64,000 nucleotides of DNA from a virus, in the IMG/VR virus record IMGVR_UViG_3300042402_004628, positions 6,831 to 70,830 of that record; one strand, written 5' to 3'. Shown here in pieces: positions 5,979 through 46,941 of this stretch. A model generated the notes under the pieces. It had not been told where the DNA came from. It saw nothing but the letters and a program-made list of their open reading frames with translations, and did no database searches. How positions within the stretch are numbered: position 1 is the stretch's first letter; every line of letters starts with the position of its first letter. A program made the position numbers and the translations under genes.

Positions 5979-7073
5979 TTAAGACCATTTGTTTAACATT
6001 TGGTAATTGTGAACTTCGTTCCATTTATTTGCGTCATAATTACCCCCTTTCCAATATTGGAATGAACCTATTCTTATATCACCCCCAGCTGTTAAGCCCA
6101 ATCTGAAAATATTATCAAATATCAGTTCAGTTGTTCCAACTTGTTGTACATAATTTTCATTACTATCATCAGCAATAAATAGTTGACCAGCATCGTTTCT
6201 ACCAAAAATAAGGGTTATCCAAGTATTAACTTGTGCACTCATTGATACGGTATCAGCACCCATAGTAAATTGGTATACGTTTGTAGCAATATCATATCTA
6301 AGTCTCGTAATCCCCCCATCAGCATAAATTATTGCTGGTGAATTACTGGCCTGCGGTGTGAATCTGAGCCTCAACGCAAACATAAAAGACTCACCAGATG
6401 AAGTATTAAGGGGTGCTATATATGAAGCCGCATTGGATGAATCTAAATCTATGTATAAATTTGCCGCATTAAATCTTCTATTATAAGTTGAATTATCGCC
6501 CGCGGTTTGTATTGATGTGGAGATATTTCCAGCGACATTTTTTGTAAACCATCTTTCTATTACACCATCAGTTGCTTGAACCAAATCGTAACATTTTGTT
6601 AAATTAGTCTCAAGAATGTCGCAATTAAGATTACCGAAATCAATATTTAACATTAAATTAGGGGTGTCAGCGTATTTGTATTTTGATAAATCAGCCAAAA
6701 AATGATTTAAATTTTCATTTTCAATAACGTATCTTTTGGCAACATCCACGTCACTATAATACGTGCCATCAATTTTTATTGAATGCAAACTATTAATTAT
6801 GTGTACAATTTCCGCATTGGTTTTACCAGTGACGTGATATGTTGGAATCGTGGGCTCACCGCCAACACCTTCTACATTTCCTCTTGATACGATATAATAT
6901 TTTTCGCCACCAAAATTACCCGCAGGATAACCTGGTCTCCAAGTAAGACCCGTTGAATTTCCGTCTTGAAAATTAAACCCTTCATTAATGTGGCCATAGC
7001 AATATTTACCAATTCTATGATATTGATCAATCGTTGGTGCGGTACCGTATTGTATAGTTACTGGAACTGACAT
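5979..7073 (-). CDS. hypothetical protein (possible virion or fibre protein)
   Basis: 364 aa, G/N/T/S-rich beta-type composition; divergent from the 7137 gene. Confidence 0.45.
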   Translation of the reverse strand: MSVPVTIQYGTAPTIDQYHRIGKYCYGHINEGFNFQDGNSTGLTWRPGYPAGNFGGEKYYIVSRGNVEGVGGEPTIPTYHVTGKTNAEIVHIINSLHSIKIDGTYYSDVDVAKRYVIENENLNHFLADLSKYKYADTPNLMLNIDFGNLNCDILETNLTKCYDLVQATDGVIERWFTKNVAGNISTSIQTAGDNSTYNRRFNAANLYIDLDSSNAASYIAPLNTSSGESFMFALRLRFTPQASNSPAIIYADGGITRLRYDIATNVYQFTMGADTVSMSAQVNTWITLIFGRNDAGQLFIADDSNENYVQQVGTTELIFDNIFRLGLTAGGDIRIGSFQYWKGGNYDANKWNEVHNYQMLNKWS

Positions 7074-9741: not shown

Positions 9742-10056
9742 ATGAACATGGTAAAACTTTTTGAGAGAATACATATCCCATTGTGGATCGCAAAGGATAT
9801 GTTCTGGATGTTGGGTCAGGGCGAACTCTCATTGGCTTTCGCGATACCAACCATAATATTATCAACAATACTCATAACAGTAAAACAGGGGTCGGAAAGG
9901 TGGCTCGAGATGATGATGGCCTTTTGGTTATCAGCCAATACCTTATGGATGTCCCACGAGCTTTTTCATACGGACACAAAAGAAATTGCATTAACCTGTT
10001 TTTTATTTGGCATTTTAACAATTCCAATCTATTTATTAAAGATAAAAGAAGAATAA
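9742..10056 (+). CDS. small multi-pass membrane protein
   Basis: In-frame ATG at 9742 inside track ORF 9589-10056; three hydrophobic segments. Confidence 0.45.
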   Translation: MNMVKLFERIHIPLWIAKDMFWMLGQGELSLAFAIPTIILSTILITVKQGSERWLEMMMAFWLSANTLWMSHELFHTDTKEIALTCFLFGILTIPIYLLKIKEE

Positions 10057-10064
10057 AACTAGTT

Positions 10065-11639
10065 ATGAAACTAACTGAGGAAATAAAGAAAATGCAATCC
10101 ATGATGGGCATTATGTCCGAGGATGTGAAAATATACGCAAACGGTGTTGGATCTGAGGTGTTTAATGATAACGAACATTACGGAAAGGTTGATGATATTA
10201 ATTTAAATGACACCATAGCAAATGAACCGTTTAAGGATATGGAATACATGGATAAAAGTTCCAATGTCGATGATATGGTTCAAGCCTTGAAATCTGGTGA
10301 AGAGCTGCCACCAATACTTGTTATTCAACACCCCTTCGACCAATCAAAATATTTGGTTGTCGATGGAAACCATAGAAGATACGCATATGACCGCGCAGGT
10401 GCTGATAAGATTCCAGCCGTTGTGATTAAACCAGAGGATGTTTTGTTAATGCAATCCGATTGGGGTGATCCAGAGGAAAAGGCGATCAGATTATCTGATG
10501 TTATATCCGATCCAGAGTTGTTTGCTCGAGAAAACACAAGAATGTTAATTGACAAGTATTTTGTTAAACCAGACGGATCACATGAGTTCGAATTGAATGA
10601 AAATTTATATGAGGAAAAGAAAAAAGCCGATCGTTGTTTAAGAATAGCGAGAAGAAAATACAGCAAACCATCAGCATATAGATCTGGTGCAATCGTTCAA
10701 TGCAGAAGAGGAAAGATATGGAGAGGTTTGAAGGAAGAGGAGATCCAAATGATTGACAACGCACCAGAGGAAATGCAAGGTTTGATCGCCAAGGCTCACG
10801 ATGCTTTGACGTGGAAGAGGGGTCGAAAAGAATATGCTCCAGATTTTAATGAACTTCAAACATGGGTGGATGCTTATTTGGAGACTGACGGTGGAATGCA
10901 TGAAGCGAAGAAAACCGATTTCTCAAAGGAGAAAAAGAGCGGACTTCACGGATGGTTTTCAAGAAGAGGTGGTGGCGGAAGCAAAGGATGGGTTGATTGC
11001 AACACATGCAGAAAAGTTGACGGAAAGAAAAAATGCAAGGCTTGTGGAAGACAAAAGGGTGAGGTGAGAGCCAAGTACCCATCATGCAGACCAACACCAG
11101 CATCATGCGGAACACCAGGAAAGGGAAAATCTTGGGGCAAGACAAAGGAAGAGGGTTACAGCTTGAATGAAGCCAAGGAGATGAAGAGAGTTGCTTTGCT
11201 TTTCATTGTGATTGACAACGAAGCGTTGTTGTTCAAGAGAAGCGAAGACGAAACAACAAATCCAGGAAAATACGGAATGCTTGGTGGTGGAATTGAAAAG
11301 AATGAAACGCCAGAGGAAGCAATCGTGAGAGAGATCAGAGAAGAAGCTGGTGTTGAGTTGAAATCATTCAAACCACTGAAGAAATATATTTACAACAACG
11401 AGTGTGAATTAAACGTATTCTACACAAACGAATTTCCAATTGATGATGTTGTGCTTGACAAGAACGAACACACATCGTACAAATATTTCACGATGGAACA
11501 ATTGATAGATATGGATCCAAAGGATATGATTGGTTCCAACAAAGAAATCGCGAAGGATTACAACGAGATCGCAAACAAGAAAAAGAAATTGGAAGAAGAG
11601 ATAGAGAGAATAAAAGCTACGATGAAGATTCTTATTTAA
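10065..11639 (+). CDS. ParB/Srx-like nuclease domain + Cys-rich linker + Nudix hydrolase fusion; shared N-terminal leader family
   Basis: 'LVVDGNHRRYA' ParB-type motif; Nudix box 'GGGIEKNETPEEAIVREIREEAGV'; Cys cluster CNTC..CKAC..C..C; N-terminus 'MKLTEEIKKMQSMMGIMSE'; the track ORF start 9783 overlaps the membrane gene. Confidence 0.7.
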   Translation: MKLTEEIKKMQSMMGIMSEDVKIYANGVGSEVFNDNEHYGKVDDINLNDTIANEPFKDMEYMDKSSNVDDMVQALKSGEELPPILVIQHPFDQSKYLVVDGNHRRYAYDRAGADKIPAVVIKPEDVLLMQSDWGDPEEKAIRLSDVISDPELFARENTRMLIDKYFVKPDGSHEFELNENLYEEKKKADRCLRIARRKYSKPSAYRSGAIVQCRRGKIWRGLKEEEIQMIDNAPEEMQGLIAKAHDALTWKRGRKEYAPDFNELQTWVDAYLETDGGMHEAKKTDFSKEKKSGLHGWFSRRGGGGSKGWVDCNTCRKVDGKKKCKACGRQKGEVRAKYPSCRPTPASCGTPGKGKSWGKTKEEGYSLNEAKEMKRVALLFIVIDNEALLFKRSEDETTNPGKYGMLGGGIEKNETPEEAIVREIREEAGVELKSFKPLKKYIYNNECELNVFYTNEFPIDDVVLDKNEHTSYKYFTMEQLIDMDPKDMIGSNKEIAKDYNEIANKKKKLEEEIERIKATMKILI

Positions 11640-14030: not shown

Positions 14031-14124
14031 ATACTGCTATTTTCTTTTAATGTGCAAGTTTATATAAAACAAAGTTATCCACACTTGTGATGTGGATAAC
14101 ATTATTTGTTTATGTGGTTAAAGG

Positions 14125-14670: not shown

Positions 14671-14702
14671 ACAAATGTAGGTGTAATTTTTTTAACCCGC
14701 AA
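14671..14702 (-). promoter_or_regulatory. cassette promoter (TTTG-N20-TAnnTTTG) for paralog A
   Basis: TTTGCGGGTTAAAAAAATTACACCTACATTTG. Confidence 0.6.
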
Positions 14703-14835
14703 ATTTTAACGCAAATTTTTTTATCTTTTTTTTTGTTTAACTTTTCGGGCAAAACATTAAACACAAAAAGTATCGTGTAGGTTGGAGTATACTCTCCCGA
14801 CTTGTTCAGCCCGCCCGTTGTCTTTAACAACAATA

Positions 14836-14867
14836 CAAAGGTAAATGAAATAAATTTAACTTGCAAA
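14836..14867 (-). promoter_or_regulatory. cassette promoter with no ORF downstream (candidate sRNA unit)
   Basis: Consensus copy; ~135 nt non-coding before promoter 14671-14702. Confidence 0.5.
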
Positions 14868-18056: not shown

Positions 18057-18088
18057 AAGATAAGTGAAATAAATTTAACTTGCAAATT
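18057..18088 (-). promoter_or_regulatory. cassette promoter for the frameshifted small ORF 17880-18033
   Basis: Consensus copy. Confidence 0.6.
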
Positions 18089-18259
18089 TTAATTCAAAAA
18101 AAGGGGAAATTTCTTTCCCCAATTAAATGCATTTTGCCTTTTTCTGTTTATTGACGGATTACAAAAGACAAACGTCATCCGTTCTCACCCACCTTATAAA
18201 TCCTTCCCGTGCACGAAACAAGAAACTGGGGCGGGATTGTTTCTACTTGTTATTTAATA

Positions 18260-18291
18260 CAAAGATAAACGAAATAAATTTAATGTGCAAA
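18260..18291 (-). promoter_or_regulatory. cassette promoter with no ORF downstream (candidate sRNA unit 18115-18255)
   Basis: Consensus copy; terminator 18100-18122. Confidence 0.5.
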
Positions 18292-24335: not shown

Positions 24336-24367
24336 TTTGCACATTAAAAAAAATACATTTACCTTTG
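24336..24367 (+). promoter_or_regulatory. plus-strand cassette promoter inside the minus arm; drives an ORF-less structured transcript (24368-24465)
   Basis: TTTGCACATTAAAAAAAATACATTTACCTTTG on the + strand; hairpin+T-run at 24466-24490. Confidence 0.5.
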
Positions 24368-24501
24368 TATTGTCCAATTAAGGAAGGGCGGGCACTCAAA
24401 AGGTGGCTGGGGTGTTCTAAGGGAACCTGCCCTTTACTCTCGTATTATGTTAAATAAAAAAAAAGGGGATTGCTCCCCTTTTCTTGTTTCGGCTTTCTCG
24501 C

Positions 24502-28785: not shown

Positions 28786-29613
28786 TTAGTTATTCCAACA
28801 AGCGTTGAAAAATTCAAGGTAATCTTCTTTGCGACCATAGGTTTTTCCGTTAAAGTCGCGTTTCTTCATACCCCTTTTAATACATTCAATAAACTTGTTT
28901 TGGCTCTTGTAGTATTTCTCAACTCCCAAGTTACCCATAAAGTTAATCAACCCCGTTGTCGCATATTGACTGCGAACAAACCCCGTTGCATTGTAGAAGA
29001 AATCAATCGCATTGATACGCTTAATTGCTTCTTGCATATCAACAACTTTGAAACTCCCGTTTATGATTTGCTTCTTTGCCAAAGCGGTGGTTGAATTTGT
29101 GAGCAAAGCGGCAATCGTTGTGTGGGTGAGAGAGAAATCCTCCGTTAATTGACTAATAACTTTTACATCTTTGTTGAAATCCGACCAACCACAAATAAAG
29201 TCGGATATACCCCAATTACGAGAACTGCTATTTAATTTCGTTACAACAATCAACGCTTCCTTTTCGTCTTTCACCTCAATAAGTTTGCAACGAATAGGTA
29301 ATTCAACACCCTTTAAGGCGGTGGTTAAATGTTGTCCATCAGCCACATTGTAAGACATACCGATTTTAACAACAACCACATCACGAAGAACTGCACCTAA
29401 TTGTGTAACGCTTGAAGCCATTTTTTGGACATGAGAAGGTGATACTTTTCGGTTAAACTTTAATAGTTTTAACAACTCATAATTAGTTGTTTCAACAATC
29501 GCAGGGTAACAAATTACATTACCATTCACATCATACTCAATCGTTTCTTTGAGTAAGGTTTTGAACGCAAAATTCCTTGAATTTTTACGCCCGATTTTCT
29601 CTGTTTTTTTCAT
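28786..29613 (-). CDS. DUF262 / ParB-like nuclease-domain protein
   Basis: 'VADGQHLTTAL' resembles the DUF262 DGQQR-T signature of GmrSD/ParB-like N-terminal domains. Confidence 0.5.
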   Translation of the reverse strand: MKKTEKIGRKNSRNFAFKTLLKETIEYDVNGNVICYPAIVETTNYELLKLLKFNRKVSPSHVQKMASSVTQLGAVLRDVVVVKIGMSYNVADGQHLTTALKGVELPIRCKLIEVKDEKEALIVVTKLNSSSRNWGISDFICGWSDFNKDVKVISQLTEDFSLTHTTIAALLTNSTTALAKKQIINGSFKVVDMQEAIKRINAIDFFYNATGFVRSQYATTGLINFMGNLGVEKYYKSQNKFIECIKRGMKKRDFNGKTYGRKEDYLEFFNACWNN

Positions 29614-36168: not shown

Positions 36169-36193
36169 TATTCATAAATCAAAAACAAAATAT

Positions 36194-36817
36194 ATGCACA
36201 AAGGAGTAATCTTATTAGTAAAAGCGGATGACCGCGATGACGCCATTGGCCAAGCCAACGAGTTTCTTGACCACTATGGGGATGGCGATGTATGGGATTG
36301 GTTCGTAATCGGTGGCCGTTGGAGCGGTAACCTGAACACCCTATCGAAAACTTTCTACGAGAAAGCAAAGGTTCTTTTCGAACAAGCATATCCAAATGAG
36401 GATAGCCCATTCTTGTCAACCAAAATGGTTGAGGAGCAAGCACAGGGTTTGCAAGAGATTTGGGAAAGCATTGGCGGGAAAGGTCAGAACCCATATTCTC
36501 GCAGCAGTTATATCAGTGACGGATTTGAGGATGATTGTCTCCCGTTGACTGATTGCATTCCCGTCATTCAGGATTGGAAGAAAGATATGGTGGCGGAGGC
36601 TGAAACCATTTGGAATAAAATGATTGAGGCCAAGAAAGATAGTGCGGACAAGTACGATATGTCAGGGTACTACGCAGGTATCTATCGTGACTTAAAGTAT
36701 GATAATTTCTCTTTCGAGAGTAATGTCTACGATGTCGTCAATCACACGAACGACCCCTCGCAGGCTTTGGAGAACCCCGAGCAGTGGTGGGCGGTTCAAA
36801 TTGATATGCACAATTAA
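36194..36817 (+). CDS. hypothetical protein (207 aa)
   Basis: Promoter 36137-36168; terminator 36840-36873. Confidence 0.55.
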   Translation: MHKGVILLVKADDRDDAIGQANEFLDHYGDGDVWDWFVIGGRWSGNLNTLSKTFYEKAKVLFEQAYPNEDSPFLSTKMVEEQAQGLQEIWESIGGKGQNPYSRSSYISDGFEDDCLPLTDCIPVIQDWKKDMVAEAETIWNKMIEAKKDSADKYDMSGYYAGIYRDLKYDNFSFESNVYDVVNHTNDPSQALENPEQWWAVQIDMHN

Positions 36818-38074: not shown

Positions 38075-38096
38075 CATTCATAAAATCAAAAACAAA

Positions 38097-38675
38097 ATGA
38101 ATATTTTACCAAAATCAATTACTGACCGAGTGTCAATCAAGAATGTGAAAGAAAACTTCGGACACGACTTGGGTGGTTTCTTCTGCGACATCTACTTCGA
38201 CAACAAGAAAGTAGGTTACCTGAACAATGATGGTTGGGGTGGTTGCCCTGACATTCGTACCTATGGTTTCGATGCAAAGCACAAAGCGATGATGAAATCA
38301 TTTGAGGACTTCCTGACCGAGCAGAACTTCGCCCAGTTTGTTGCTGATGATTACAACAAACCGCACCCGCAAATGCCCAATGGTAAGAATGATTGGGTTG
38401 CTGATGATTTCAGGTTTGACAGCCAAGTTGAATTCCTTTGTGAACGCCTGAACTTTATGAAAAGTATTGAACGCCAAACAAAGAAAGCAATCCTTTATGG
38501 TAACCCTCGTTCAACCAATTACAAGATAGTATCTTGGAAAGGTGCAAAGACACTTGAAGATGTTGTGAAGAGTATCGGTAATGCTCGTTTCAAGGTTGTT
38601 GTTGATGGTATCAAAGCCAAACTTGTTGAGGGGGAAATGATTTACAACACAAACCTCGAAAAGTTTTTGCAATAA
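38097..38675 (+). CDS. hypothetical protein
   Basis: Cassette promoter 38043-38074. Confidence 0.55.
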   Translation: MNILPKSITDRVSIKNVKENFGHDLGGFFCDIYFDNKKVGYLNNDGWGGCPDIRTYGFDAKHKAMMKSFEDFLTEQNFAQFVADDYNKPHPQMPNGKNDWVADDFRFDSQVEFLCERLNFMKSIERQTKKAILYGNPRSTNYKIVSWKGAKTLEDVVKSIGNARFKVVVDGIKAKLVEGEMIYNTNLEKFLQ

Positions 38676-41712: not shown

Positions 41713-41768
41713 AAAAAAACGGCTCCATTTCTGGAACCGTCTCTTCACCACTAAATCAAAAACAAAAA

Positions 41769-42035
41769 TCAATACTGGTAGTATGTGTATTCAATTGTGT
41801 CCCCCACCCTGTAACGGGCATGTTGAGGATCAACTGTAACTGGAGCTGTGCTGTCCCAGAATTCATATCGGTAGCGCTTCTTGTAATTCAGTGTTGTTGG
41901 ATCGTACTGTTCGATCGTGTCAACTTTCTTAATCACATGTGGCACCACATGAATTGACTTCGGTGGTCTCTGGACACACCCTGTCACCAGGACAGTGAAT
42001 ACAAATATTAGTTTACGCACCTTTGGTAAATACAT
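41769..42035 (-). CDS. lipoprotein
   Basis: MYLPKVRKLIFVFTVLVTGC lipobox. Confidence 0.45.
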   Translation of the reverse strand: MYLPKVRKLIFVFTVLVTGCVQRPPKSIHVVPHVIKKVDTIEQYDPTTLNYKKRYRYEFWDSTAPVTVDPQHARYRVGDTIEYTYYQY

Positions 42036-42246
42036 CTGGGTTTTCAAAATCAGTTTCAGTATCCAGAAACATGAATGAATCCTCCAACTCCTCATCGGTG
42101 AGTTTAACATCTTCCGACAAAGAATTCAGAAAGTCCATTGCTTCCCGTTTGCTGTTGAAATACTTGTAGTCTGTGTTGTCCTCATTCATAAGGTACTCCA
42201 AACCATTTAACGATATGCCCTCAATGGGTCTTCCAATTATTATCAT
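42013..42246 (-). CDS. hypothetical small acidic protein
   Basis: Promoter 42249-42280 (minus). Confidence 0.45.
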   Translation of the reverse strand: MIIIGRPIEGISLNGLEYLMNEDNTDYKYFNSKREAMDFLNSLSEDVKLTDEELEDSFMFLDTETDFENPDVFTKGA

Positions 42247-42324: not shown

Positions 42325-43170
42325 TTATTCCCAAGGTGTATCAAAGTTATCGAATGGGTTTTCTGGGAAGCAAGAGTTCTCATCATTCCATTCTTCTTCC
42401 GAAATTACATTTCCGTCCTCACCAACATAAACTCTTTGTTCAACATTGTAGTTATATACAACGCCATCCAAAACATATTCTGGTTCACCCTCCGCTAACA
42501 TAAGTTCACCATCCTCGCTGTAAGCACAACCCGCGAACCAGTTTCCAGTTTCCATAAACACCAGTTTGAAGTTCAAGTTCGGAAACATTTTGATAACTTT
42601 TCCCAACCAGTTGATTGGTGGCGACCAGGCGGAGTTGAAGTTAATTGTAATATAGTTTTCGTTATCTGTATCGAAACCCATTTCCTCTGACGAGCAATCC
42701 CACTTTGTTCCCCAGTTCATAACATTCCAGTCGTACCAGTTGTCAGTCCCATACTCTTCAATAAGAGCCTCTCGCTTCTCTTCTGTACCATTGGCACATT
42801 CAATTAGTTCTGGAATTTCAATTGGTATCTTTGCTTCATTCAATTGGTTGTTGATGAAGTCCCTGTCGGTTTTGTCTGTGGTCTCCAGAAGTTTTTTCTC
42901 CAGATCAGCGATCAACTCTTGTTGTTTCTCGATACGATTTTTTGCGTGGTTCACATCCCACTCGTTCACCCATTCACAATCACGAGGTGGTGATATGGTT
43001 CTGGAAAGTGGTTCTGGTGTCGGTAAGTAGTTCGACATTCTCCAGACAAGTTCTGTTTCACCTGTTTTGCTGTAACGCACAGGTTCTTCGGTAATTCCCA
43101 TTGCAAGGAATTGTTTGAATTCTTTGGTATCACCCGATACCTCTAAACGATTTTCGCACCAGTTTGGCAT
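42325..43170 (-). CDS. hypothetical protein starting MPNWCENRL (possibly DUF1281-like)
   Basis: Start moved to the first ATG after promoter 43196-43227; N-terminal MPNWC motif recalled from DUF1281-type proteins (low certainty). Confidence 0.45.
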   Translation of the reverse strand: MPNWCENRLEVSGDTKEFKQFLAMGITEEPVRYSKTGETELVWRMSNYLPTPEPLSRTISPPRDCEWVNEWDVNHAKNRIEKQQELIADLEKKLLETTDKTDRDFINNQLNEAKIPIEIPELIECANGTEEKREALIEEYGTDNWYDWNVMNWGTKWDCSSEEMGFDTDNENYITINFNSAWSPPINWLGKVIKMFPNLNFKLVFMETGNWFAGCAYSEDGELMLAEGEPEYVLDGVVYNYNVEQRVYVGEDGNVISEEEWNDENSCFPENPFDNFDTPWE

Positions 43171-43195
43171 AGTATATTGTTTTTGATTTCGAGAG

Positions 43196-45684: not shown

Positions 45685-45716
45685 ACTTGCATAATAAAAA
45701 AAGTTGTATTACATTT
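45685..45716 (+). promoter_or_regulatory. cassette promoter with no ORF downstream; leads into an inverted repeat and the GAATTCA repeat array
   Basis: CTTGCATAATAAAAAAAGTTGTATTACATTTG. Confidence 0.5.
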
Positions 45717-45735
45717 GTAGTCCTTAAGAGTTCAG

Positions 45736-45794
45736 GCCTGGGAGGCAACCCTTTCTCTCTGTTTTGTTTTTGATTTCAAAAAGTCCTCCCAGGT
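45736..45794 (+). other. long-range inverted repeat (CCTGGGAGG ... CCTCCCAGG) downstream of the ORF-less promoter
   Basis: 9-bp arms about 40 nt apart. Confidence 0.5.
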
Positions 45795-45803
45795 TCTGTT
45801 CTC

Positions 45804-45942
45804 GAATTCAAGTTTAAGTTTCTACTAGAATTCAACCCCGTATAATTTTTAGAATTCATATTGCTGGATCTTCCAGAATTCATATCCGTAACTTTTTTAG
45901 AATTCATATATAAATAAAAAAGGTGAACCCTTTTAGAATTCA
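45804..45942. repeat. array of six (T)AGAATTCA repeats (iteron-like), the first three on a 24-bp register
   Basis: GAATTCA at about 45804, 45828, 45852, 45886, 45900, 45936. Confidence 0.65.
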
Positions 45943-45957
45943 CCTTTCAGTTTTTTT
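45920..45957 (+). terminator. hairpin + T-run closing the ORF-less transcript from promoter 45685
   Basis: GGTGAACCCTTTTAGAATTCACC ... T7. Confidence 0.5.
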
Positions 45958-45967
45958 ATGTATTCAC

Positions 45968-46225
45968 TTATTCGTCATCCGCTTCTTTCTTGCGTCTGGT
46001 CTTTCTGGTTGGTAAACCTCTTTTCTCACGTATCCTGTCCCTGAGTTCCATCACCTTCAGGATGGCTGTGATCACCGCGATGAAAAGACCGAGGATCACA
46101 CCGATCAATTGTAGGAGATCTGTTGCACTCATGGTGATTGATAACATTGATGATAATATTCCGTATTCAGGTTTTTTAGTTAGTGTATCCGTTAATTGGG
46201 TGATGAGTGTGTCCTTCATTTTCAA
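45968..46225 (-). CDS. holin-like small membrane protein (one TM plus a highly charged C-terminus)
   Basis: 'LLQLIGVILGLFIAVITAILKV' then RDRIREKRGLPTRKTRRKKEADDE. Confidence 0.4.
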   Translation of the reverse strand: MKMKDTLITQLTDTLTKKPEYGILSSMLSITMSATDLLQLIGVILGLFIAVITAILKVMELRDRIREKRGLPTRKTRRKKEADDE

Positions 46226-46742: not shown

Positions 46743-46792
46743 TGGGTGGGAAATGGGATTTTGTGGGGGTAAGTGGGGGATTGTGGGAAATA
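46743..46792. repeat. G-run repeats (GTGGGAAAT / GTGGGGG) in the 280-bp non-coding spacer at the convergent C/D junction
   Basis: GGGTGGGAAATGGGATTTTGTGGGGGTAAGTGGGGGATTGTGGGAAAT. Confidence 0.6.
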
Positions 46793-46941
46793 GTGTAAGT
46801 AACTGATTATCAGGTAATTCAGTGACTGTCAGTGAGTTATCTGAATGCACTCATTTTCAGTCAGTTGCGGGTATGTGTGTTTCTCGGCAGAATTCACATG
46901 GGATCCTGGGCAATATAATGTAAAATGAATGCATTTTAAGG

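Follow-up and report, generated by a model that had tools for sequence, protein, structure and literature searches.

A stretch of 64,000 nucleotides from a virus (IMG/VR record IMGVR_UViG_3300042402_004628, positions 6,831 to 70,830; hereafter the window) contains, near 45.7-46.0 kb, a unit that runs from an early-type promoter to an intrinsic terminator and encloses a hairpin and an array of GAATTCA motifs. Its most informative feature, absent from an earlier reading of this DNA made from the letters alone (the sequence-only reading), is that the loop of the hairpin is antisense to the leader common to the early genes. The unit is most likely, to judge by its sequence and its relatives, a gene for a non-coding RNA (ncRNA) of about 235 nt without an Rfam family. 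The explanation that we favour, and hold at about even confidence, is that it would encode an anti-leader regulatory small RNA (sRNA), devoid of an open reading frame (ORF), that also carries an array of AGAAUUCA.

Complementarity of the hairpin loop to the early leaders

One promoter pattern of the window has 61 matches against 2.5 expected, oriented with the genes. Some 58 near-identical promoters (TTGCAnnTTAAA...TAnnTTTG, of the Bacteroidota -33/-7 type) span 14.6 to 46.4 kb: those up to 32.8 kb face leftward (minus strand) and those from 32.86 kb onward face rightward (plus strand), which makes two early arms with a point of divergence near 32.83 kb. Behind each promoter stands a small gene, and most of these genes have a common A/C-rich leader, (u)aucaAAAAACAAAcaa-AUG, between promoter and AUG, typically uaucaAcAAAAACAAAcaaa-AUG, next to a subclass with 4-nt leaders (e.g., cauuAUG). 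The initiation regions are A-rich and without a Shine-Dalgarno sequence. The ORF-less unit is the last cassette of the rightward arm, placed where the arm meets a convergent holin-like gene.

The core of the hairpin loop, UCUGUUUUGUUUUUGAUUUCA, is the antisense of the A/C-rich leader AAUCAAAAACAAA of dozens of early genes, and a search for its complement returned a second, unexpected match in the early-gene leader at 20.94 kb. The 13-mer AATCAAAAACAAA, with at most one mismatch, occurs 18 times against 1.8 expected, and 16 of the other 17 occurrences have the orientation of the early genes around them (minus strand in the leftward arm, plus strand for the most part in the rightward arm); within the early units that carry it, it lies between the -7 box and the AUG. 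Among 63 promoter-plus-ORF units, contiguous Watson-Crick complementarity to the loop reaches at least 9 nt in 37, at least 11 nt in 16 and 15 nt in three, as compared to a mean of 1.6 units with at least 9 nt for 200 shuffled loops. The mean energy of the loop-leader duplex is -11.1 kcal/mol versus -6.2 +/- 0.96 kcal/mol for the same shuffles. When all T-rich 21-mers of the window are ranked as antisense to the leader set, the loop comes out at the top together with the opposite strands of the leaders themselves. Four putative target leaders are given in Table 1.

This complementarity can be followed into relatives (metagenomic contigs, designated L with a number). Six of 10 lineage variants have the same loop core and one more departs from it by a single base, and UUUUUGAUU is kept in the loops of all ten. 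L194 has 13-nt loop matches in five leaders, and its ortholog of the Api92-like leader keeps a 13-nt match. The variants of L044 and L051 have a second anti-leader copy in the 5' tail, and an extra 5' module, UUGUUUUGGUUUAU, finds a match in the Api92-like leader of L031, cauaaaccaaaaaaa, but none in 15 kb of L194. L196-198 have an anti-leader of another sequence, CAUGUUGUUUUGAUUUGAUUUGAG, preceding a small hairpin, and the GP88 leader there is aaucaaaucaaauaac; leader and anti-leader thus differ together in this group, which we read as a co-change at the level of the lineage. If leader and anti-leader do co-vary, one would expect correlated substitutions such as AAAUCAAAAACAAA/UUUGUUUUUGAUUU versus AAUCAAAUCAAAU/UUGAUUUGAUUUG. 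As judged from the sequences, then, the loop presents a conserved, accessible seed complementary to translation-initiation regions.

A second anti-leader-like segment, UGAUUUUUGUUUUUGAUUUAG, lies at 41751-41771 (minus strand) in the 3' untranslated region (UTR) of gene 41769-42110, a short way ahead of the terminator. The segment keeps its place in L194 (9900-9925) though the terminator stem differs, and it may represent a second anti-leader RNA derived from a 3' UTR.

Anatomy of the unit

The sequence-only reading had described a cassette promoter, an inverted repeat with 9-bp arms, six GAATTCA repeats with the first three on a 24-bp register, and a closing hairpin with a T-run. Each element is there, the promoter with a zero-mismatch match to the early pattern, and two of the descriptions can be extended. 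The arms of the inverted repeat, CCTGGGAGG (45737-45745) and CCTCCCAGG (45785-45793), are 100% complementary and form a 9-10-bp helix, which a G·U pair, 45736/45794, lengthens. All six repeats exist, and the register was understated: five of them (GAATTCA at 45804, 45828, 45852, 45876 and 45900) are exactly spaced, and the sixth follows at 45936, 36 bp beyond the fifth. The closing stem pairs AAAGGTGAA (45919-45927) with TTCACCTTT (45939-45947) and is followed by the T-run at 45951-45957; because the scan also calls a terminator on the minus strand, it is bidirectional, and it is predicted to end the convergent holin-like gene 45968-46225 (minus strand) as well. The sixth AGAAUUCA (45935-45942) forms part of the terminator loop and 3' arm. 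With a promoter and an intrinsic terminator of its own, both called at the level of sequence, the unit would be an independent transcription unit.

Table 1. Features of the unit and putative target leaders of its loop (window coordinates)
Feature	Position	Strand	Remarks
Early-type promoter	45687-45717	+	-33 TTGCAT, -7 TACATTTG (TTGCAT-N-TACATTTG); Bacteroidota sigma-A type; 0 mismatches to pattern
Predicted primary transcript, ~234 nt (~235)	45724-45957	+	Start predicted from the -7 box, end from the terminator T-run
Hairpin 5' arm GCCUGGGAGG	45736-45745	+	Inverted repeat, covariation
Anti-leader core UCUGUUUUGUUUUUGAUUUCA	45758-45778	+	Inside the 39-nt hairpin loop
Hairpin 3' arm CCUCCCAGGU	45785-45794	+	Inverted repeat, covariation
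Five (A)GAAUUCA units	45803-45907	+	Exact 24-nt register
Bidirectional intrinsic terminator (AAAGGUGAA/UUCACCUUU + U-run)	45919-45957	both	Repeat and terminator scans
Putative target leader UUAUAUCAAAAACAAAACAA	20940-20959	-	Directly before early gene AUG; 15 nt complementarity, -19.8 kcal/mol
Putative target leader (uauucauaAAUCAAAAACAAAAuau-AUG), gene 36194-36817	36169-36193	+	15 nt, -19.7 kcal/mol
Putative target leader, gene 38097-38675	38075-38096	+	15 nt, -16.0 kcal/mol
Putative target leader, Api92-like gene (42325-43170)	43171-43195	-	14 nt, -17.1 kcal/mol

The first unit of the array is CTCGAATTCA and the remaining ones follow (T/C)(T/C)AGAATTCA, with G-poor, pyrimidine-rich spacers between them. 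GAATTCA occurs 11 times on the plus strand of the 64 kb outside the unit, which predicts about 0.02 per 140 nt, and six are observed. With no more than 9-10 of each 24 nt repeating, the array escaped Tandem Repeats Finder. The plus strand folds with -52.3 kcal/mol (z = -3.4). Rfam 15 gave no match in the whole window at gathering thresholds; the best match below threshold, Termite-leu on the minus strand (29.9 bits versus a gathering threshold of 51), consists of two generic hairpins and was rejected.

Evidence for a plus-strand RNA

The stem was assessed on an end-anchored alignment of the hairpin (A6) from the ten lineage variants, since MAFFT, given the whole RNA, did not align the two arms correctly. 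Its stem has 93% of cells paired and three pairs changed on both sides (GC/AU/GU series), values that were reached by 1-3 of 500 shuffles, and when the partner is slid by one column the paired fraction is 68%. The arm pairs observed are CCUGGGAGG/CCUCCCAGG, CCUGGGGGG/CCCCCCAGG and CCUGGAGG/CCUCCAGG, of the types GGGAGG/CCUCCC, GGGGGG/CCCCCC and GGAGG/CCUCC, with G·U intermediates in L043, L048 and L051; RNAalifold returns the same 9-bp stem and leaves the loop open. Read on the minus strand, the G·U pairs of four stem positions turn into C·A mismatches; since they fit the plus strand alone, the selected molecule would be the plus-strand RNA. The terminator stem is 98% paired among 13 sequences, with an AU-to-UA swap in three.

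All plus-strand frames contain stops, and we found no conserved ORF on either strand among the variants. The sequence-only reading had stated that no ORF fits, which holds in substance, although a minus-strand ORF of 55 amino acids (45776-45943) with Met-Asn-Ser (MNS) every eight codons does exist. One could envision that it encodes a repeat protein (MNSxxxxx), as no stop interrupts the frame in the window or in L031, a period of 24 nt is a whole number of codons, and L041 has an ORF of 163 amino acids over its own motif cluster. However, the frame is broken by stops in the lineages of L044/45/47, L048-50 and L051-53, spacings of 11, 16, 25 and 27 nt disrupt it, the ORF, which no promoter precedes, starts within the terminator of the minus-strand gene upstream of it, and no gene is called there in any of 12 loci. 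We rejected such a protein because its frame is not conserved among the variants, and we regard it as the least probable of the alternatives considered here. The proposal of a structured ncRNA of about 230 nt, one of the two offered by the sequence-only reading, is supported by the comparison: promoter, hairpin and terminator are kept in 16 variants with no conserved frame, and the covariance analysis in relatives that it had called for yields compensatory and G·U changes of the stem that fit the plus strand alone.

Distribution and variation in relatives

Variants were obtained through contigs that carry homologues of the 83-amino-acid holin-like neighbour (n = 141). Sequence scans added little: the pattern of three GAATTCA at 24-nt spacing hit 30 loci in IMG/VR, 29 of them unrelated perfect tandem repeats and the sole homologue L015; a search of IMG/VR with the upstream 183-amino-acid protein found nothing; and an 18-mer of the loop core in IMG/VR and a 19-mer in 185,579 species genomes gave chance T-rich matches alone, bar L015, so that the scans supply neither a host clue nor a prophage copy.

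In each of the 16 variants from related metagenomic contigs the promoter and the terminator, conserved as AAAGGUGAAC...AGAAUUCACCUUU, enclose a hairpin built on CCUGG...CCAGG and a run of (A)GAAUUCA. Compared pairwise across six lineages, the terminator has a mean identity of 84%, the promoter of 79%, the loop of 73% and the spacers of about 48%. Across 46 distinct motif units of these variants G-A-A-T-T-C-A is invariant and position -1 is A in 39, after a 5' flank that is pyrimidine-rich and nearly free of G. The number of copies (3-6) and their spacing (11, 16, 24, 25, 27 or 35-48 nt) vary from one variant to another.

A covariance model of the hairpin (R1) found one copy per genome, hence no paralogues, and none in L035-42 and L193. 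Parts of the unit persist in some of these: L035 and L038, which are without the rest of the unit, keep the terminator with its motif, and L038-40 keep four motifs with the promoter absent. More distant forms are found in L196-198 (holin 59-60% identical), where the unit has a different small hairpin, and in L041, where a long hairpin (z = -5) shares the CCUGG/CCAGG base and is followed by 13 motifs and a terminator with the loop CAGAAUUCACC. The order of anti-leader or hairpin, motif array and terminator with motif thus recurs in three divergent lineages, and is, as far as the sequences tell, a conserved architecture of the transcription unit.

Some observations on these contigs stand apart from the unit. 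The called 163-amino-acid ORF of L041 (3450-3941, plus strand) runs antisense through its cluster of 13 AGAATTCA motifs; the motif occurs there in two frames (NS, EF) and never in the TGA frame, and the ORF is probably spurious. L192, a relative with the same sRNA unit, has, at 239-700 and 1-160, an array of clustered regularly interspaced short palindromic repeats (CRISPR) and an adjoining gene whose product has a Cas6_C domain. The array has seven 36-nt repeats, ACTGTTACTTATATTAATCTGAAAGAGAATCACAAC, and 30-nt spacers, and the holin-like gene is some 2 kb away. ARAGORN makes a tRNA-like call at 194-282 of L031 (tRNA-His with an unusual ATG anticodon), and strings resembling tRNA 3' ends (TAGTCAGGACAGGATTCGAACC) lie a few kb past the unit.

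The GAATTCA array as RNA or DNA

The motif of the array is not confined to the unit. Of the 41 GAATTC sites of the window, 33 fall within 33.7-47.2 kb, and the synonymous choice follows the same boundary: Glu-Phe is encoded by GAATTC in 18 of 27 cases in the arm (38% expected by codon usage) and in 4 of 46 elsewhere (22-25% expected), so that GAATTC appears to be avoided outside the rightward arm. In the corresponding arm of relatives, 73 Glu-Phe dipeptides are found versus 31.6 expected, 59 of the 73 encoded by GAATTC versus 24 expected. Among 110 distinct coding contexts, 61 have the full 8-mer AGAATTCA in either orientation (A..A in 43, T..T in 18), and 14 have palindromic flanks. The 8-mer is oriented leftward between 33.7 and 41.7 kb and rightward between 41.86 and 46.9 kb, with a switch near 41.75 kb that recurs at the homologous spot in L194, and the genes are mostly on the plus strand on both sides; the orientation of the flanks at coding sites follows position, not transcription. 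This pattern in the arm looks like a polar signal at the level of DNA. Because GAATTC is a palindrome, it gives GAAUUC in every mRNA whatever its orientation, and the enrichment alone therefore cannot separate DNA from RNA.

One could thus suppose that the AGAATTCA array is primarily a DNA element, a dense set of same-orientation sites for a DNA-binding or DNA-tracking protein at the right boundary of the right early arm, with the 8-mer scattered through the arm in position-dependent orientation, as polar motifs are near origins, termini or the ends of DNA. In that case the ncRNA, or at least its 3' half, would merely occupy the DNA that hosts the cluster, and the 5' hairpin might still act as RNA. 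The concentration of sites in the arm, the Glu-Phe codon bias there and in relatives, the 61 contexts with the full 8-mer, the orientation switch in the window and in L194, and one motif of L038 that lies beyond the terminator all speak for this possibility. However, the spacing is neither helically phased nor conserved (11, 16, 24, 25, 27, 35-48), and in three divergent lineages the array always lies, in the sense orientation, between the 5' hairpin or anti-leader and the terminator, its last motif always in the loop or arm of the terminator hairpin and its flanks G-poor as would suit single-stranded RNA. The palindromic core, moreover, reads GAAUUC in mRNA in either orientation, and no candidate binding protein has been identified. 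We regard a primarily DNA-borne role as the main rival for the array and a serious one, though less probable than multivalent sites on the RNA, which we take as the working model.

Alternatively, the RNA could be a pure protein sponge of the CsrB/RsmZ type, in which AGAAUUCA titrates an RNA-binding protein or endoribonuclease that also recognises GAAUUC in the mRNAs of the right arm, the likeness of the loop to the leaders being incidental or marking a second protein site. Multiple invariant copies of a motif (3-6 in number) with variable spacers are indeed observed: the 7-8-nt core is constant in the 46 units, spacers and copy number vary, and the G-poor context is presumably unstructured. 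GAAUUC is also enriched in the mRNAs of the same arm and avoided elsewhere, and by our own comparison GGAG sites of RegB would be expected to be so distributed in T4. Such a sponge, for which no cognate protein has been identified, would nevertheless leave the identity of the core in 6 of 10 variants and the 13-15-nt loop-leader matches unexplained, as well as the polarity of the flanks, and we think it unlikely.

The other proposal of the sequence-only reading was an origin of the iteron type or a parS-like partition site, activated by transcription and bound by an initiator or ParB-like protein. Direct repeats in an A/T-rich context with a promoter reading in are what such a site would offer, and the two ParB-like proteins that it had pointed to are in the window, at 9783-11639 (plus strand) and 28786-29613 (minus strand), 16-36 kb from the unit. 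Iterons are typically about 17-22 bp long with conserved, helically phased spacing, whereas the core here is 8-10 bp and its spacing differs between relatives. DnaA-box-like matches with one mismatch come no nearer than 44138 and 47590 (about 1.5 kb), and the sole tight perfect pair is at 14075-14099. parS is an extended palindromic site, usually beside parAB, but here the GAATTC core alone is palindromic, its flanks are asymmetric (A...A), and the flanking genes are without initiator, ParA or ParB domains. The G·U covariation of the hairpin indicates RNA, and absence of the unit from the close relatives L035-37 would be unlikely for an origin. This proposal is not supported in its iteron or partition form, to which we give very little credence; what may hold of it is action of the motif on DNA in a wider sense, as the 8-mer is selected in the neighbouring coding DNA with positional polarity.

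The layout of promoter, tandem repeats and terminator could also suggest a processed repeat RNA, either a ToxI-like decoy antitoxin of type III or a miniature CRISPR-like array, and L192 has a true CRISPR array with a Cas6-like gene some 2 kb away. Type III antitoxins, however, are built of tandem repeats of about 34-45 nt that hardly differ from each other, with the gene for a toxin endoribonuclease behind them in the same direction, and CRISPR arrays combine repeats of about 23 nt or more with unique spacers of much the same size and usually come with cas genes. In our array 8-10 of about 24 nt repeat, the spacers, at 15 nt, are too short and unlike one another, neither a toxin nor a cas gene lies downstream (the next gene being convergent and holin-like), and the 36-nt repeat of L192 (ACTGTTAC...CACAAC) is unrelated to the motif. 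We judge this mimicry even less credible than an origin.

Proposed mode of action and its weak points

Under the anti-leader explanation that we favour, the host RNA polymerase would transcribe the unit from its early promoter and stop at the intrinsic terminator. The 5' half of the RNA would fold into a GC-rich hairpin whose large loop displays the U/G-rich antisense of the AAUCAAAAACAAA..AUG leader of most early mRNAs. Made together with the early genes, the RNA would pair in trans with many early mRNAs at their A-rich initiation regions, and such pairing might keep ribosomes from loading, hasten decay, or both; once it has built up, the RNA could serve as a bulk shut-off or timer of early-gene expression. 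Its 3' half, a predicted unstructured and G-poor tract with 3-6 AGAAUUCA, may offer multivalent sites to a partner, for which an RNA-binding protein, an RNase or GAAUUC-containing RNAs are candidates. The anatomy, the conservation, the plus-strand covariation of the stem, the lack of a conserved ORF and the excess of loop-leader complementarity over shuffles are observations; from these we infer transcription, pairing in vivo, the sign and timing of the regulation and the role of the array.

Several points count against this explanation. The reversed loop still matches 23 leaders at 9 nt or more, and leader and loop are of low complexity (A/C-rich versus U/G-rich), so that part of the complementarity signal is compositional. 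The loops of L191 and L192 differ outside the UUUGUUUUUGAUU core, with few leaders of their own to compare, and the extra 5' module of the L048/L194 variant has no matching leader in 15 kb of L194. The variants are kin, and the shuffle statistics consequently overstate their independence. Promoter and terminator are consensus-level calls, and L035-37 (76% holin identity) have lost all of the unit save the terminator, which makes it dispensable. The promoter of the sRNA is itself early, so the logic of timing is speculative, and an antisense model does not explain the AGAAUUCA array, whose motif may act on DNA.

A broader version would accommodate the array: a class-wide riboregulator in which the hairpin anti-leader shuts off several dozen early mRNAs and a coupled array signal (AGAAUUCA/AGAATTCA) is read in both RNA and DNA. 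That signal would be written into the DNA of one arm by synonymous codons, with polarity, and avoided elsewhere, thereby organising the early programme. We offer this version tentatively, as it is appreciably less probable than the anti-leader sRNA as such.

Genome context

The window has a low GC content (33-41%) and its source is a virus-like element. It encodes a UvrD-type helicase, the two ParB-like proteins, a NUDIX protein, NAPRTase and adenylosuccinate synthetase, together with members of the phage families GP88, L5-gp82 and DUF932; the proteins that flank the unit match GP88, L5 gp82-like or holin-like proteins, or nothing. Identical or near-identical copies of the holin-like protein are found on metagenomic contigs of up to 298-310 kb, and the source is probably, to judge by its promoter type, an uncultured giant (jumbo) phage of Bacteroidota. 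Megablast of the 6-kb neighbourhood against GenBank phages gave no match, nor did tblastn with the holin-like neighbour against the same set, and the best matches of the window's helicase have at most 31% identity, which leaves it without a cultured relative. The 64-kb window has no tRNA.

Other features of the window deserve mention in their own right. Two perfect DnaA boxes (TTATCCACA), inverted, and a one-mismatch copy are found within 47 bp at 14075-14121, at the outer edge of the leftward arm. ORF-less cassettes that run from an early promoter to a terminator, and are candidate ncRNAs, occur at 14700-14836 (minus strand), 18085-18260 (minus strand) and 24367-24480 (plus strand); a GGGCGGGC box is common to those at 14836 (minus) and 24367 (plus). 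G-rich decamer repeats (TTGTGGGGGA/TAAGTGGGGGA) at 46745-46790 occupy a convergent intergenic region after a gene for a membrane protein of 97 amino acids; they are kept in L015 (about 1040-1110), and another AGAATTCA lies near, at 46889.

Comparison with known systems

The putative RNA is a new family of a known kind, the phage regulatory sRNA, and is absent from Rfam. Its unusual traits, as they emerge from the comparisons above, are a seed seemingly aimed at the leader of a whole temporal class and an attached array of an 8-nt motif that appears to be under selection in the surrounding coding DNA. Our literature searches on GAAUUC motifs in phage RNAs and on ncRNAs of jumbo phages of Bacteroidetes returned nothing relevant.

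The array recalls iterons and centromere-like arrays in being a series of same-orientation direct repeats in non-coding DNA, which in those systems is at times crossed by transcription, but it differs in its far shorter core, unconserved spacing, lack of an initiator, DNA-unwinding element or DnaA-box context, and covariation of RNA type on its 5' side. Sponge sRNAs of the CsrB/RsmZ type have many copies of a short motif with variable spacers and copy number and a terminator hairpin that also holds the motif. All of this is paralleled here, with invariant copies at variable spacing, variable copy number and a motif in the terminal terminator; the motif, however, is AGAAUUCA rather than GGA, it is not clearly placed in hairpin loops save that of the terminator, and an antisense module is added.

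The T4 proteins RegA, a translational repressor, and RegB, an endoribonuclease that cuts GGAG, act on the initiation regions of many early mRNAs (PMC3014915). What we propose resembles this arrangement: early genes would be shut off as a class, after transcription, by way of a short sequence that their initiation regions have in common, and GAAUUC, like the GGAG of RegB, is a short motif concentrated in one temporal class of genes. Unlike RegA and RegB, which are proteins, the recognising molecule here would be an RNA; homologues of RegA or RegB were not found in this DNA, although no search was aimed at them. Early post-transcriptional shut-off is well described for T4, where proteins carry it out; to our knowledge it is hardly known outside T4, and we know of no phage shown to perform class-wide shut-off by a single RNA aimed at a common leader. 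If the model holds, it would provide a simple regulatory logic for uncultured giant phages of Bacteroidota and a natural "universal antisense" design with which the early programmes of phages could be silenced, and the selection for and against GAATTC by genome compartment, with its polarity, would point to an unrecognised sequence signal in these genomes.

In form the RNA resembles the c4 RNA of P1/P7, which acts on icd-ant, and the sar RNA of P22, which acts on ant: each is a short phage RNA with a promoter and terminator of its own and a loop that displays the complement of an initiation region. We found no sequence or Rfam relation to either, and the array of invariant 8-nt motifs is an addition here. 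Whereas c4 and sar address one operon, the complement displayed by this loop matches the leader of dozens of independently transcribed early genes in both arms.

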